Part shown: positions 33,690-64,000 of the stretch, piece by piece
Position numbering within the stretch: position 1 is the stretch's first letter
How the letters are laid out: each line of letters begins with the position of its first letter
NCBI GenBank assembly: GCA_035278125.1
Contig: DATEJJ010000852.1
Location: 757 to 64,756 of the forward strand
DNA: 64,000 nucleotides
Source of the DNA: Rugosimonospora sp.
GTDB taxonomy: Bacteria > Actinomycetota > Actinomycetes > Mycobacteriales > Micromonosporaceae
Direction of reading: 5' to 3'
Program-made: the position numbers and the translations under genes
The notes under the pieces: model-generated
Told to the model about the DNA's origin: nothing
Databases searched by the model: none
What the model saw: only the letters and a program-made list of their open reading frames with translations

Positions 33690-34131
33690 CGGTGGACCTC
33701 AACCATCCGGACGGGTCGACCACATCGCGATCGCCGACACCACACGCTCTTCCGCCAGGCGATACACGACCTGCTCGGTGTCACGGCGATCTGGTGGTGG
33801 TCGGCGGAGGCCGCCCACCGACGAGGAGGTGACCACGAGTCGCGCCGGCACACCGACGCCGACCGGCACGTGTTCTCCACCTCGAGGGCGAGCGTCCTCC
33901 AACCTCGTCGGCGTCGCGGCGCCGCTGCCGTCCGAGCGCGAGCGGGAATCCTCACGCAGGCCGCACGGGGCCTGAGCAACGCCCGGATCGCCGCCGTGCT
34001 CGCAATCGCCGACGGAACCGTAAAACGGCACCTGCACAACATCTCGGCAAGCTCGGCGCATTCTCCCGTATCGACGCGGTGAATCGCGCCGCCGAGGCGA
34101 AGGTCATCAACTGGCCGAGCGGTACCGGTTG
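33690..34131 (+). pseudogene. LuxR/NarL-type response regulator remnant (multiple frameshifts, shortened receiver)
   Basis: The pieces IAIAD, TLFRQAIHDLLG, GDLVVVG, LSERERE, ILTQAARGLSNARIAAVLAIADGTVKRHLHNI and GKLGAFSRIDAVNRAAEAKVI occur in different frames. The 3' end overlaps the SARP stop. Confidence 0.55.
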
Positions 34132-34961
34132 ACCAGTTCCCCCGGCACCGGTGCGGCCAGCGCCGCCGCGTCCCGCCGGCGCGACACGAGCCGCTGACCG
34201 CCGTTGAGCATGTCGAACTGCAGCCGCTGGAGTTCCACCGACGGTTCCAGACCCAGCTCGCTGCCGAGCAGCTGGCGGAGATTCTGGTATGCCCGCAACG
34301 CTTCTCCGCGTCGGCCGGTGCGGTACAGCGCGTCGATGAGCTGCGCGTGGAACCACTCGTTGAACGGGTAGGCGGACACGATTTCGCGGAGTTCGGAGAT
34401 GAGTTCGGCCTGCCGGCCCAACTGCAGATCGCATTGGATCCGCAGCGCGAGCGCCGAGATCTTCTCCTCGTCCAGGTAGGCCGCGTGGGCCTCCAGGAGC
34501 CGCCCGTAGTTGACGTTGCTCAGGGCCCGACCCCGCCACAGCGCGAGCGCGTCGTTCAGATGTCGGCGGGCCTCGGCCGGGCGACGCTGCTGCAACAAGT
34601 CCCGGCCGATCTCGACGCTTTGAGCGAACTCGTTCGCGTCGATCTGATGCGGCTCGATCTGCAACAGATACCCGGGTGTCCGGGTCACGATGACCGGAGG
34701 CCCGTCGTTGCCCGCCTCGATCCGCCGGAACATCCGCCGCAGCTGGTACACGTACGTCTGGGTGGTGGTCATCGCGCTCTGGGGCGGCATATCGCCCCAG
34801 AGCTCCTCGGTGATCGCGTCGACTCCCACGACATGATTGGCCCGCAGCAGCAGTAGCGCGAGCACTTGGCAGACCTTCGGCGCGCTCGGACTGAACACTT
34901 CGTCTCCGAGACGGACATCTAGCCGCCCCAGGACGCTGAACCGTACGGCACGACTCAACAC
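34107..34961 (-). CDS. SARP-family (AfsR/DnrI/RedD) pathway activator
   Basis: OmpR-type winged-helix domain (FSVLGRLDVRLGDEVF...TRTPGYLLQI) followed by a BTA domain (ALALWRGRAL...HAQLIDALYRTGRRGEALRAYQNLRQLL). GTG start with GGGGGTGA RBS. Confidence 0.9.
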   Translation of the reverse strand: MLSRAVRFSVLGRLDVRLGDEVFSPSAPKVCQVLALLLLRANHVVGVDAITEELWGDMPPQSAMTTTQTYVYQLRRMFRRIEAGNDGPPVIVTRTPGYLLQIEPHQIDANEFAQSVEIGRDLLQQRRPAEARRHLNDALALWRGRALSNVNYGRLLEAHAAYLDEEKISALALRIQCDLQLGRQAELISELREIVSAYPFNEWFHAQLIDALYRTGRRGEALRAYQNLRQLLGSELGLEPSVELQRLQFDMLNGGQRLVSRRRDAAALAAPVPGELVNRYRSAS

Positions 34962-35031
34962 ACGATCACCCCCGTGATGTTCAGCAACAGCTTCGGCATG
35001 GTCAGCAAGGCATCAACATGCACCAACTCTG

Positions 35032-35043
35032 GAGACTAGTCTC
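35032..35043. promoter_or_regulatory. 12-bp perfect palindrome GAGACTAGTCTC upstream of the SARP gene
   Basis: Read directly from the sequence, 71 nt upstream of the SARP start. A near-identical copy sits at 63394-63405. Confidence 0.45.
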
Positions 35044-35076
35044 AATGTTAGTCAGGCTTCAAGGTAAGAGGGGTGT

Positions 35077-35715
35077 CTACTCGTCCACGCTCAGGATCTC
35101 GTAGAAGCCGTACGGCTGGGAACGACGGCGGTCGAGGTACGGTCGCAGCGGTGCGGTCTGGACCCGGTGTACTGCGGTCACCTCCCATTCGCGGAAGGCG
35201 GCCACGTCGCTCCACTCGCTGATGACGAGGTACTCGTCCGGGGCCGACAGCGACCGGTGCAGTTCAGCTTTGACCAGACCGGGCGTGCCGCACACCGAGG
35301 TCTCGATCTGCCGGTGCGCGGCCCGGATCGTCGCCTCGTCGGTGTCTCCGGCGTAGTACCAGACCATGACGCGCACCGGCCGCGCTGGCGGATTCGCCTT
35401 GGCGACCTGGTGCACCACCCGGCTCGTCGTCATCGATCCCTCGGCGCGATGCCGGCGCAGCGCGGAGACGGCGGCGCGGTGCTCGTGGGTCGCCTCGTGC
35501 GACCGGAACGCCTCCTCACTGTCCCAGTCGCTGAACACCAGCACCTCGCTGGGATCGTCGGCCGAGCGCATGATCCACTGTTGCAGGTTGTGGCGGTTGT
35601 CCGCGGCCACCTGGGCCACGTCGGCGAGCGCGGCGTCGAATGCCTCCTGCGCGCCGGTGGCGACCCGCATCCGCAGCATGACCTGGAACACTTGCTCCGG
35701 AAGCGTCGCCGTCAT
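35077..35715 (-). CDS. Tandem two-domain ABM (antibiotic biosynthesis monooxygenase) protein
   Basis: Two ABM repeats (VFQVMLRMRV...FSDWDSEEAFRSH and VRVMVWYY...ISEWSDVAAFREW). ATG 35715 is in an ATGA overlap with the upstream stop. Confidence 0.8.
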   Translation of the reverse strand: MTATLPEQVFQVMLRMRVATGAQEAFDAALADVAQVAADNRHNLQQWIMRSADDPSEVLVFSDWDSEEAFRSHEATHEHRAAVSALRRHRAEGSMTTSRVVHQVAKANPPARPVRVMVWYYAGDTDEATIRAAHRQIETSVCGTPGLVKAELHRSLSAPDEYLVISEWSDVAAFREWEVTAVHRVQTAPLRPYLDRRRSQPYGFYEILSVDE

Positions 35716-36026
35716 GCCGCGTGCCACTCGTGGAACTGGGGCGCCATCGCGTCGCGCGGGCCGCTGCTGGCCGGGTCGTATGCCTTGGCGTGTCGACTCA
35801 GTTCGCTGTTGACCTGAACGAACAACGGGTTCGTCCGGGCCGCCTCGACATCGGCGTCGGAGTCGTCGCGTCGCTGGACGAGGTGCAGGTACAGATCGTG
35901 GAACGTGAACAGGGCGCGGGACGAGGCGCGCATGAGATGCGGCAGGTCGGTGGGGTCGGACCGGACAACGACGTCCCCCACGGCGCCGGCGGCCGGGTCG
36001 ATACGCACGACGAGGGTCCGTTTCAC
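35712..36026 (-). CDS. TcmI-family polyketide cyclase
   Basis: Matches TcmI as I recall it: LFTFHDLYLHLV, NPLFVQVNSELSRHAKAYD, C-terminal F..W.A. GTGA overlap with the OMT stop. Confidence 0.85.
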   Translation of the reverse strand: MKRTLVVRIDPAAGAVGDVVVRSDPTDLPHLMRASSRALFTFHDLYLHLVQRRDDSDADVEAARTNPLFVQVNSELSRHAKAYDPASSGPRDAMAPQFHEWHAA

Positions 36027-63377: not shown

Positions 63378-63393
63378 CAGCCTCCCTCTCTTT

Positions 63394-63416
63394 GAGATTA
63401 GTCTCCGTAGACTATA
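63394..63416. promoter_or_regulatory. Operator-like GAGATTAGTCTC plus overlapping IR TAGTCT-N4-AGACTA, overlapping a minus-strand TATAGT -10
   Basis: Read directly from the sequence. Matches the palindrome at 35032-35043 at 11 of 12 positions. Lies 17-39 nt upstream of the DrrA-like start. Confidence 0.45.
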
Positions 63417-63492
63417 TGCCATCGGCGTCCCGTCCGTCGATACCCGACGTAAGACGACTTGCGTTATCTATCCGAAACATGGGCACCGGCGG

Positions 63493-63535
63493 TCGACGTC
63501 CGCTCAAGCAAGGCGCGACCCGGCCGGGTGACGAT
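63493..63535 (+). promoter_or_regulatory. SARP-type promoter candidate for GT-E: TCGACGT-N4-TCAAGCA-N4-GCGACCC-N8-GACGAT
   Basis: Read directly from the sequence. 11-bp phasing and an 8-bp gap. The GACGATGGCGTCG 13-mer is identical to the one in the minimal-PKS promoter. Confidence 0.5.
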
Positions 63536-63565
63536 GGCGTCGATCCAATCGCTGAGGAGGCACCC

Positions 63566-64000
63566 GTGCGCGTGCTGTTCACCGTCTCGTCCTGGCCGAC
63601 CCACTACGCGTCGATGGTGCCGATCGGTTGGGCTCTGCAGGCCGCCGCGCACGACGTACGGGTACTCTGCACGCCGTCGCAGGCGGATCCGCTGAGCATG
63701 GCCGGGCTGACGCCGGTCCCCGTACTGGATAGTCCCGACGACCAGACGCGCCTGCGCCTGCAGTACTACCTGGAGGCGGTGCACGGTCACTGGCCGTACC
63801 CGTGGCCGCCGCTGCACCCGCTGACCGGTGCACCGATGGACAGCCTCGACGACTTCGACCTCGGCGAGTTCCGCGAACGCCAGGCGCCAGCGATCGCCGG
63901 CCGTGCGGCCGCGAGCTTCGACACCGCGGTCGAGTTCGCCCGGGCCTACCAGCCGGATCTGATCCTGCACGACCCGGCCAATCTCGAGGGCCAACTGGCC
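63566..64000 (+). CDS. GT1-family glycosyltransferase E (5' part; runs off window end)
   Basis: Not in the ORF track (no stop in window). Manual translation from GTG 63566 after GAGGAGG gives VRVLFTVSSWPTHYASMVPIGWALQAAAHDVRVLCTPSQ... Confidence 0.85.
   Translation, partial: MRVLFTVSSWPTHYASMVPIGWALQAAAHDVRVLCTPSQADPLSMAGLTPVPVLDSPDDQTRLRLQYYLEAVHGHWPYPWPPLHPLTGAPMDSLDDFDLGEFRERQAPAIAGRAAASFDTAVEFARAYQPDLILHDPANLEGQLA

Follow-up and report, generated by a model that had tools for sequence, protein, structure and literature searches.

Leads with antifungal, antiviral, and antitumour activity are known among the pentangular polyphenols, for example the pradimicins, benastatins, fredericamycin, and polycyclic xanthones, and the activity of these compounds often depends on their sugars. 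The ARX21 protein has been described as a C-17/C-19 ketoreductase (KR) of pentangular polyphenols, and its functional residues have been published (PMC9215129; PMC5321127). The residues I/V133, A139, and S/T140 of the chain-length factor (CLF) are a signature shared by every training-set system with chains of 24 or more carbons (PMC4383371), and 2 glycosyltransferases, PdmS and PdmQ, have been described for pradimicin (PMC10951976). Here, we describe an orphan type II polyketide synthase (PKS) cluster in Rugosimonospora sp., an uncultured soil actinomycete of the family Micromonosporaceae that is represented by a metagenome-assembled genome (MAG). The cluster starts at roughly 31.9 kb and extends beyond 64.0 kb, about 32 kb or more, in the stretch of 64,000 nucleotides that was analyzed, here called the window (contig DATEJJ010000852.1, positions 757 to 64,756). 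It probably belongs to the pentangular polyphenol class, within a widespread family of clusters with a pair of PdmJ/PdmW-type cytochrome P450 enzymes, and the predicted product is a five-ring aromatic polyketide related to pradimicin with several sugars.

Genes in the window, which has a G+C content of about 70%, were called from the third-position GC bias (GC3) and scanned against Pfam; the scanned genes span all but one 64-amino-acid end fragment. The first-pass annotation had placed a type II PKS cluster with a tetracenomycin/pentangular-type set of cyclases and heavy tailoring at about 34.1 to 64.0 kb. All of the gene classes that it listed were identified with strong Pfam scores, including 3 antibiotic biosynthesis monooxygenase (ABM) domains distributed over 2 proteins and 2 transport systems, a POT/MFS transporter and a DrrAB-like ABC pair, whereas 2 DUF1772 proteins and 2 GalE-like epimerases had been overlooked. 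As it had also proposed, the cluster runs past 64 kb, and a fifth gene for a glycosyltransferase of family GT1 is cut by the end of the window; the window leaves at most 3.4 kb of the 67357-nt contig uncovered, at one end or at both. The segment from 39230 to 52518 was matched by an independent ENA assembly with 99.91% identity, and the ENA contig stops at window position 52518. For the DrrA-like ATPase, in either of 2 start variants, and for the RPH-like protein, no identical protein was found on record.

The polyketide synthase core and the P450 pair

The genes for the minimal PKS were arranged in the order cupin, ketosynthase alpha (KSalpha), CLF, acyl carrier protein (ACP), and TcmN-type cyclase, as in the first-pass annotation. 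The active-site residue Cys181 of KSalpha was located within the motif TGCTSG, and the His motifs INAHGSGT and VGHSLG were also seen, while the ACP contained Ser40 in a DSL motif and the CLF contained Gln161 (GEQAGG) in place of Cys. Since Gln161 is present and no gene for KAS III or an acyltransferase was found in the cluster, the synthase is likely to be primed with acetate. Three cyclases, of the TcmN/WhiE, TcmI, and TcmJ types, support the suggested tetracenomycin/pentangular cyclase set; the first of these, a protein of 155 amino acids, matched WhiE ARO/CYC (PDB 3tvr) with 203 bits and TcmN (2rer) with 187 bits, and its match to the reducing-type cyclases was weak.

By far the best PDB match to the KR was 5thq/5tii with 280 bits, as compared to about 170 bits for the next match, and no actinorhodin KR entry was identified among the best 60 matches. 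When a 20-residue tag is allowed for, residues S144, R154, Y157, K161, and Y210 of the 5thq chain correspond to the published ARX21 residues (PMC9215129), and we infer from this numbering that 5thq is ARX21. All 5 residues were retained in the corresponding columns of the KR in the window (S147, R157, Y160, K164, and Y207), which assigns it by alignment to the pentangular-specific ARX21 type rather than to the generic C-9 ketoreductases. The CLF, aligned to the actinorhodin (act) CLF (1tqy_B), contained N109, G112, and I116 instead of the bulky F109, T112, and F116, and it carried I133, A139, and T140 in the act numbering, as in the signature for chains of at least 24 carbons. No named characterized relative was found among the best 120 matches to either KSalpha or the CLF, and because these relatives bear generic names, the chain length was estimated solely from the signature residues.

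The best non-self homolog of KSalpha was 78% identical in sequence and the next about 73%. The closest relatives at the 73% level, from Nonomuraea rubra and Carbonactinospora thermoautotrophica, were encoded in surroundings of the pentangular type, with the gene order cupin-KS-CLF-ACP-TcmN-(DUF1772)-KR-ABM-ABM and with genes for Amidohydro_2, P450, or PNPOx proteins nearby; they were not situated in whiE spore-pigment loci. The order of the genes from the cupin to the TcmN-type cyclase is identical to that in whiE, the contig is from a MAG, and the stretch to the right of 52.5 kb is present in one assembly only, all of which would agree with a spore-pigment minimal PKS next to foreign tailoring and glycosyltransferase genes, brought together by chance juxtaposition or misassembly. 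Such an origin is highly improbable, however, given the context of the KSalpha relatives and given that the genes for the ARX21-type KR, the P450 pair, a ferredoxin, a glycosyltransferase, and the PNPOx-FkbM protein are translationally coupled to the minimal PKS in a single operon. In total, 12 genes on the minus strand, from the cupin gene to the PNPOx-FkbM gene (50938 to 41038), have stop and start codons that overlap or abut, and this arrangement ties both the PNPOx-FkbM gene and the gene for the glycosyltransferase next to the P450 pair (GT1c) to the PKS. Furthermore, the second assembly confirmed the segment from 39.2 to 52.5 kb, and the genes to the right of 52.5 kb, for a methyltransferase, O-methyltransferase 2 (OMT2), DUF1772, an epimerase, an RPH-like protein, and Amidohydro_2, are precisely the ones found with the same PKS/P450 core in independent genomes. 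A whiE locus proper, which is compact with about 8 genes and lacks genes for KR, P450, and glycosyltransferases, was ruled out by the KR, the 2 P450 enzymes, the ferredoxin, and the glycosyltransferase in the PKS operon.

The first-pass annotation had also compared the paired P450 enzymes to the pradimicin-type PdmJ and PdmW, and the resemblance was supported in that one of them was 63% identical, with full-length coverage, to PdmW of the pradimicin (pdm) locus in Actinomadura hibisca. The neighboring P450 is a paralog with 56% identity to the PdmW ortholog, 51% to PdmW, and 57% to 61% to the second P450 in related loci. The haem-Cys motifs were intact in both proteins, with the sequence FSAGPHFCIG in the PdmW ortholog. 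The comparison with pdm covered a 13-kb part of the pradimicin locus, which shares with the window only PdmW, the luciferase-like oxidoreductase (LLM) that adjoins pdmW (51% identity), and an O-methyltransferase with 49% identity to OMT2. Taken together, the cyclase set, the KR, the CLF signature, the likely acetate priming, the P450 enzymes, and the KSalpha context support a PKS of the pentangular type.

Related clusters and the xanthone alternative

A profile scan with the P450 over 185,579 species-representative genomes identified 66 loci, about 60 of which had identities of 55% to 69% and came from about 60 actinomycete species. The hosts included Streptosporangium, Nonomuraea, Actinoallomurus, Nocardia brasiliensis, Winogradskya, Amycolatopsis, Streptomyces, Kitasatospora, and several MAGs. 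All window proteins were compared to the related loci, here numbered with the prefix L, in a tblastn matrix, and gene tables were made for 3 of them. The recurring core consisted of TcmI-KS-CLF-ACP-TcmN-DUF1772-KR-ABM plus the 2 adjacent P450 genes. The other recurring modules were a GT1 gene immediately after the PdmW-type P450 gene, an F420-type LLM, an epimerase-methyltransferase-second epimerase module, Amidohydro_2, DUF1772-OMT, and the RPH-like dikinase, the latter with at least 40% identity in 14 loci. The cluster in the window contained every one of these modules.

Homologs of the individual proteins were conserved to variable degrees. The TcmJ-like cupin showed 55% to 74% identity in related loci, the single-domain ABM protein 40% to 57% in 28 loci, and the first DUF1772 protein at least 40% in 39 loci, while OMT2 was 54% to 57% identical in the relatives, where it was paired with the second DUF1772 protein. 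Homologs of GT1c (43% to 50%) were encoded directly after the PdmW-type P450 in L039, L019, L014, and L043. The class I methyltransferase (52% to 57%) adjoined the epimerase in L039, L072, L043, and L014, and the epimerase itself showed 62% to 67% identity in relatives, while homologs of the second epimerase (40% to 44%) were located beside these 2 genes in L039, L072, and L014. For the POT/MFS transporter, homologs with 46% to 48% identity were found in Streptosporangium and Nonomuraea loci.

The most similar loci, in Streptomyces sp. MspMP-M5, S. rameus, and Kitasatospora cystarginea, shared 15 to 16 of 34 genes at 45% to 70% identity in a rearranged order, and the similarity at the DNA level was confined to short stretches of 71% to 77% in the KS and P450 genes. 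If relatives in MAGs are included along with S. rameus JCM 11574, MspMP-M5, and K. cystarginea (together L041/L071, L043, L042, L039, and L017/L072), the number of shared genes was 12 to 16 at 45% to 70% identity. These encode TcmI, KS, CLF, TcmN, both DUF1772 proteins, KR, ABM, both P450 enzymes, LLM, GT1, OMT2, the methyltransferase, one or more GalE-like epimerases, Amidohydro_2, and the RPH-like protein. In S. rameus, a standalone PNPOx gene follows the P450 pair in the same position as the fusion gene in the window, but this species differs by having a KAS III gene, which indicates a non-acetate starter, as well as an ACP-cyclase fusion, a FAD monooxygenase, and 2 glycosyltransferases. 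It was also noted that the apparent ACP-cyclase fusion in S. rameus JCM 11574 (L071), the closest cultured relative, is a protein of 240 amino acids with PP-binding and Polyketide_cyc domains. Within 10 kb of the P450, the relatives encoded neither the FkbM fusion nor O-methyltransferase 1 (OMT1) nor the DrrB-like permease, and their matches to the PTP-superfamily phosphatase were weak, with at most 35% identity. OMT1 was at most 33% identical to any protein in the related loci, and neither OMT1 nor the DrrB-like permease had a family counterpart in these loci.

No high-identity synteny was observed at any of the 66 loci, no characterization was found for the uncharacterized PdmW-type relatives, and no matching cluster was found in the literature on TLN-05220, lanthomicin, and BisCEET. 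The cluster is real and uncharacterized as judged from these comparisons, with no characterized cluster of close synteny among the loci compared. The first-pass annotation had not recognized the combination of genes as a described cluster, and in this respect it was correct; yet the combination is less singular than first thought, in that homologs of the RPH-like, Amidohydro_2, LLM, PNPOx, POT, and DUF1772 proteins recur throughout the family.

Two further features of the family were noted. DUF1772 corresponds to the fungal HypC-type anthrone oxygenase family and is retained in nearly all PdmW-type clusters, including L003, L071, L072, and L073, with one gene between those for the TcmN-type cyclase and the KR and the other beside an O-methyltransferase gene; no description of its role in bacterial type II PKS pathways was found. 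The clusters in the MAGs MFD05442.bin.1.63 (L003/L007) and MFD00822.bin.1.227 (L005/L060) encode a PdmW-type P450, DUF1772, the RPH-like dikinase, and GT1 proteins, with the addition of an NRPS-like (nonribosomal peptide synthetase-like) A-PCP-C protein and a sulfotransferase, and they have a second P450 locus about 28 kb away with a weak Y_phosphatase3 homolog.

One of the related loci, L019 in Streptoverticillium reticulum J-35, has been described as lysolipin-like with added sugar genes (PMC13200232) and shares 13 genes with the window at 44% to 74% identity, which means that the P450 pair spans both pradimicin-like and xanthone-type pathways. The main alternative product is therefore a polycyclic xanthone of the lysolipin, xantholipin, FD-594, or kigamicin type, in which case a Baeyer-Villiger FAD monooxygenase, and possibly an amidotransferase, would be encoded beyond the window. 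Several sugars are carried by FD-594 and by the kigamicins (PMC9327801), a close homolog of PdmJ is known for FD-594 (PMC4383371), and the relatives L071 and L072 carry peripheral FAD_binding_3 monooxygenases. However, XanO4-type enzymes are normally encoded inside such clusters, and neither a FAD_binding_3 monooxygenase of the XanO4/PnxO4 type nor an asparagine-synthetase-like gene was detected with Pfam in the approximately 32 kb of the cluster up to the cut at 64 kb. Moreover, about 0.8 kb of the at most 3.4 kb of remaining contig would be needed on the right side to complete the truncated glycosyltransferase gene. Overall, we consider a xanthone product unlikely.

Several observations weigh against a pentangular, pradimicin-like product as predicted here. 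The P450 pair alone does not specify a pradimicin-type end product, since some relatives are lysolipin-like, and the assignment of the second P450 to the PdmJ type is presumptive. The CLF was at most 67% identical to any database protein, its N109 is unusual, and its signature bounds the chain length at 24 carbons or more only, so that chains of C26 to C30 would also be possible. Genes for oxygenases or sugar biosynthesis may have been missed beyond the window or elsewhere in the genome, and the number of glycosyltransferase genes need not equal the number of sugars. Finally, nothing was found in the literature on roles for RPH-like, phosphatase, LLM, or PNPOx proteins in the pentangular class.

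The RPH-like dikinase and the tailoring enzymes

The RPH-like protein, for which Listeria RPH (5fbs/5hv1) provided the PDB matches in architecture, begins with an ATP-grasp domain, continues with a middle domain, and ends with a swivel His domain that has an intact catalytic-His motif, GGLLSHPAIVAREYGVP. The swivel domain comprises residues 696 to 799 of 806 and aligned to residues 764 to 863 of the 867 residues in 5fbs, and to residues 377 to 480 of the PEP synthase 8a8e, in which it is centrally located. The scores against the NCBIfam models for RPH were 209 bits for NF041857 (cut-off 999) and 142 bits for NF000283 (cut-off 1700), as compared to 201 bits for RedH (cut-off 1350) and 181 bits for PigC, and the PEP synthase models scored equally. 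On these scores, the protein is not an RPH equivalog. It has the same domain order as RPH, PigC, and RedH, in which the ATP-grasp domain is N-terminal, the substrate domain lies in the middle, and the swivel domain with the conserved His is C-terminal, but unlike all of these it is far below every curated cut-off and is encoded in a type II PKS cluster beside a decarboxylase gene. In RedH and PigC, the dikinase fold serves to phosphorylate, and thereby activate, an oxygen of the substrate ahead of a condensation.

The gene for the RPH-like protein shares 4 bp with the end of the epimerase gene, at its stop codon, and the Amidohydro_2 gene comes next after a gap of 11 bp; the adjacency of the RPH-like and Amidohydro_2 genes recurs in L072. 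The closest structures to the Amidohydro_2 protein were 2f6k, the gamma-resorcylate decarboxylase 2dvt, ACMSD, LigW, and IDCase, and a protein of this class would fit the removal of a salicylate-type terminal carboxyl group from a G-2A-like intermediate. A literature search revealed no connection of RPH/PEP-synthase-like enzymes or of Amidohydro_2 with pentangular or with xanthone clusters, nor a described role in aromatic polyketide tailoring for the RPH-like dikinase, Amidohydro_2, the F420-type LLM, PNPOx, or DUF1772.

The phosphatase contained an intact CX5R motif, CHSGAGR, with the Cys at position 142. Since enzymes of the PTP superfamily hydrolyze aryl phosphates, this protein could undo the O-phosphorylation of a polyphenol. 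A secreted phosphatase, as expected for a prodrug that is exported and then activated, was rejected in that no obvious signal peptide was seen at the N-terminus by inspection, with no predictor run.

Two roles for the RPH-like protein were considered. The first would be that of a phosphotransferase for self-resistance or drug inactivation, with an unrelated housekeeping phosphatase and all phosphorylation outside of biosynthesis; the protein shares with RPH the three-part architecture and the C-terminal swivel His domain. Resistance genes are common in biosynthetic clusters, the relatives are annotated with an Rph_4th domain, and the phosphatase is not conserved in the family. This role is possible but doubtful, because the score is low relative to the RPH equivalog cut-off and RedH and PigC, which perform biosynthetic phosphoryl activation, score as well; in addition, the gene is in an operon with those for the epimerase and the decarboxylase, the latter also adjoining it in L072, and the cluster already encodes 2 export systems. 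The other role would be an undescribed ATP-dependent O-phosphorylation of a polyphenol intermediate within the biosynthesis of a heavily glycosylated pentangular polyphenol with up to 5 UDP-derived sugars, which we regard as speculative and rather unlikely. The phosphate might be a removable group for protection or self-protection, or a leaving group; in the latter case it could allow deoxygenation or substitution in combination with F420-type reductases, by analogy with the activation chemistry of PigC and RedH.

The 5 GT1 genes were only 34% to 55% identical to each other and are thus not recent duplicates, and the relatives examined contained 2 or 3 GT1 genes within 10 kb of the P450. No gene for an NDP-sugar nucleotidyltransferase, a 4,6-dehydratase, or an aminotransferase was found at 31 to 64 kb, and the only sugar genes were the 2 epimerase genes, both with MoeE5 among the best PDB matches of their products, along with UDP-hexose 4-epimerases for the copy next to the RPH-like gene and UDP-glucose 4-epimerases for the other. 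Because of the GalE/MoeE5-like epimerases and the lack of deoxysugar genes, this suggests that the sugars are drawn from UDP-hexose, UDP-uronate, or UDP-pentose pools and are not deoxysugars. The top NCBIfam model for the class I methyltransferase was BioC, a malonyl-ACP carboxyl O-methyltransferase, with 61 bits (cut-off 185), which is a weak hint that it could act on a carboxyl group rather than on a hydroxyl group or a sugar. For the LLM, the top model was TIGR03559 with 279 bits (cut-off 335).

The PNPOx-FkbM protein was searched against 1.84 billion representative proteins, and among the best 150 matches only the query itself spanned both halves in a single match. The others were either PNPOx proteins or FkbM methyltransferases that stood alone, or they were methyltransferase domains in megasynthases, and the FkbM half resembled the methyltransferase domains within megasynthases of up to 7027 amino acids. 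The fusion thus appears to be a singleton architecture. An assembly artefact was considered unlikely, as the same open reading frame of 420 amino acids was called in the independent ENA contig.

Gene content, proposed pathway, and comparison with known systems

The genes of the cluster are listed in Table 1, in which the start codon of the LLM gene was adopted from the ENA gene call. The homologs of the second epimerase gene adjoin the same methyltransferase and epimerase genes in related clusters, and the left border is therefore probably nearer to 31 to 32 kb than to position 34107, where the first-pass annotation had placed it. The PadR-family regulator had no homolog in the related PdmW-type loci.

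Table 1. Genes in the polyketide cluster of Rugosimonospora sp., with positions in the window.
Predicted product	Position	Strand	Evidence
PadR-family regulator, possible left border, membership uncertain	31217..31759	+	PF03551, 4e-13
GalE-like NDP-sugar 4-epimerase, second copy, probably in cluster	31932..32852	+	PF01370, 5e-29
SARP pathway activator	34107..34898	-	BTAD 3e-43, Trans_reg_C 2e-8
Two-domain ABM protein	35077..35727	-	PF03992, two stretches, 4e-22
TcmI-like polyketide cyclase	35712..36026	-	PF04673, 4e-25
O-methyltransferase 1 (OMT1)	36023..37045	-	PF00891 + dimerisation domain
Single-domain ABM monooxygenase	37042..37371	-	PF03992, 2e-8
GT1 glycosyltransferase a	37495..38688	+	EryCIII-like N + C domains
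Luciferase-like oxidoreductase (LLM), F420-dependent class	38745..39773	-	PF00296, 5e-69
GT1 glycosyltransferase b	39885..41045	+	EryCIII-like N + C domains
PNPOx-like (flavin/F420-binding) domain fused to FkbM-family methyltransferase	41038..42300	-	PF01243, PF05050; TIGR01444 95 bits
GT1 glycosyltransferase c (GT1c), adjoins P450 pair	42293..43495	-	Pfam
Small ferredoxin, P450 electron donor	43492..43695	-	Fer4_13, Fer4_15
Cytochrome P450, PdmW ortholog (C-6 hydroxylase type)	43703..44896	-	63% identity to PdmW
Cytochrome P450 paralog, presumed PdmJ type (C-5 hydroxylase)	44898..46058	-	PF00067
SDR ketoreductase, ARX21 type (C-17/C-19)	46058..46804	-	PDB 5thq, 280 bits
DUF1772 / anthrone-oxygenase-like membrane protein 1	46825..47295	-	PF08592, 3e-10
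TcmN/WhiE-type mono-domain aromatase/cyclase (C9-C14 first ring)	47292..47759	-	PDB 3tvr, 2rer
Acyl carrier protein (ACP)	47756..48007	-	PF00550
Chain-length factor (CLF, KSbeta)	47995..49233	-	act CLF 1tqy_B, 431 bits
Ketosynthase alpha (KSalpha)	49230..50537	-	Pfam
TcmJ-like cupin cyclase	50534..50938	-	PF07883, 2e-17
PTP-superfamily phosphatase (Y_phosphatase3), presumably cytoplasmic	51058..51750	-	PF13350, 3e-41
POT/MFS transporter	51846..53321	+	PF00854, 1e-48
Class I SAM methyltransferase	53318..54055	+	Pfam
GT1 glycosyltransferase d	54106..55242	-	Pfam
O-methyltransferase 2 (OMT2)	55239..56249	-	PF00891, 3e-34
DUF1772 / anthrone-oxygenase-like membrane protein 2	56301..56759	-	PF08592
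GalE-like NDP-sugar 4-epimerase	57123..58187	+	PF01370, 9e-43
RPH-like ATP-dependent dikinase/phosphotransferase	58184..60604	+	PPDK_N, PEP-utilizers
Amidohydro_2 non-oxidative aromatic-acid decarboxylase class	60616..61572	+	PF04909, 3e-34, 120 bits
ABC-2 permease, DrrB-like	61637..62398	-	PF01061, 2e-24
DrrA-like ABC ATPase	62400..63377	-	PF00005, PF13732 DrrA1-3_C
GT1 glycosyltransferase e, N-terminal part, cut by window end	63566..64000	+	EryCIII-like_N, 4e-8

A second biosynthetic cluster, of the acarbose or C7N-aminocyclitol pseudo-oligosaccharide type, was located at positions 1 to 23519 of the window. It contained a gene for a DHQ-synthase-like sugar phosphate cyclase fused to a cupin (9022 to 10653), as well as genes for a class-III aminotransferase, an NTP transferase, a ROK kinase, an RmlD-like protein, 3 GT5/GT4-like proteins of about 700 amino acids, an ABC exporter with 2 ABC2_membrane_6 permeases, 2 alpha-amylase-family proteins, a GlgE-like protein, an aldo-keto reductase, and a GMC oxidoreductase. 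Actinoplanes, the genus of the acarbose producers, is in the same family as Rugosimonospora. The spacer between the 2 clusters (23600 to 31200) had a lower G+C content in places (0.66 to 0.68) and carried genes for a helix-turn-helix protein and a fragment of a Mutator-family transposase (25265 to 25705), along with open reading frames without Pfam matches at 26380 to 27324, 27912 to 28412, 28725 to 29198, and 30257 to 30637. It may represent a recombination or insertion scar.

For the product of the PKS cluster, which is probably a pentangular polyphenol, a pathway is proposed in which the chain length beyond 24 carbons, the regiochemistry, the sugar identities, and the role of phosphorylation are modeled by analogy with pradimicin (PMC10951976), frankiamicin (PMC4383371), and ARX21 (PMC5321127, PMC9215129). 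KSalpha, the CLF, and the ACP would start from acetate and build a chain of 24 or more carbons, most likely a dodecaketide, whose first ring would be closed at C9-C14 by the TcmN-type cyclase and the remaining rings by the TcmJ-like and TcmI-like cyclases. A quinone would be formed by the ABM and DUF1772 oxygenases and the distal ketone reduced by the ARX21-type KR, so that these ring and redox steps may lead to a 5,6-dihydrobenzo[a]naphthacenequinone of the G-2A type, which the 2 P450 enzymes and the ferredoxin would hydroxylate at C-5 and C-6, as in pradimicin. The Amidohydro_2 protein would then remove the salicylate-type terminal carboxyl group, there being no PdmN-like amino-acid ligase. 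The core could be decorated by up to 4 methyltransferases and up to 5 GT1 enzymes, with sugars that are probably taken from UDP-hexose pools and epimerized at C-4 by the 2 GalE-like enzymes, while the F420-type reductases (LLM and the PNPOx domain) may adjust the redox state. The RPH-like dikinase might phosphorylate a polyphenol hydroxyl group and the PTP-type phosphatase might strip the phosphate, which would provide transient phospho-protection or activation. Export is predicted to occur via the DrrAB-like ABC pump and the POT/MFS transporter, and transcription to be activated by the SARP protein.

The tailoring combination is unusual yet largely typical of the family, and orphan clusters of this kind are common. 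No report on natural products was found in the literature for the genus Rugosimonospora. The cluster joins the pradimicin-type machinery for 5,6-oxygenation with more glycosyltransferases than the pentangular clusters covered in the cited papers, and it draws attention to a broader and largely unstudied PdmW-type family in about 60 actinomycete species. Its value lies in being a lead for genome mining and a prioritized target for synthesis-based heterologous expression, rather than in opening up a new category of biology. Of its components, the conserved RPH-like dikinase is the most intriguing, and this enzyme is worth characterizing.

With the clusters for arixanthomycin (arx), xantholipin (xan), lysolipin (llp), and FD-594 (pnx), the cluster described here shares the ARX21-type KR, the pentangular cyclase set, and the same broad P450 family, and, with arx and pnx, glycosylation (PMC9327801, PMC9215129). 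It differs from them in that no XanO4-type Baeyer-Villiger or other FAD monooxygenase, amidotransferase, or halogenase was found in the cluster. With pdm, it shares the logic of a pentangular dodecaketide, with TcmN/TcmJ/TcmI-type cyclases, ABM oxygenases, and a late KR (PMC10951976), as well as the PdmW ortholog next to a paralogous second P450, and a glycosylated product, which is predicted for the cluster described here. However, the asparagine-synthetase-like amino-acid ligase PdmN is absent, as no such domain was identified in the Pfam scan of the called window genes, and an Amidohydro_2 decarboxylase is encoded instead. The 13-kb part of the pdm locus contains genes for an NDP-sugar nucleotidyltransferase, a dehydratase-like SDR, an aminotransferase, and acetyl-CoA carboxylase, none of which are present in the cluster described here, and the glycosyltransferases of the 2 systems are not orthologous (29% to 32% identity), with 5 GT1 genes in the window as compared to the 2 described for pradimicin. 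Conversely, the RPH-like dikinase, the PTP phosphatase, the PNPOx-FkbM fusion, and the DUF1772 proteins are additions relative to pdm.

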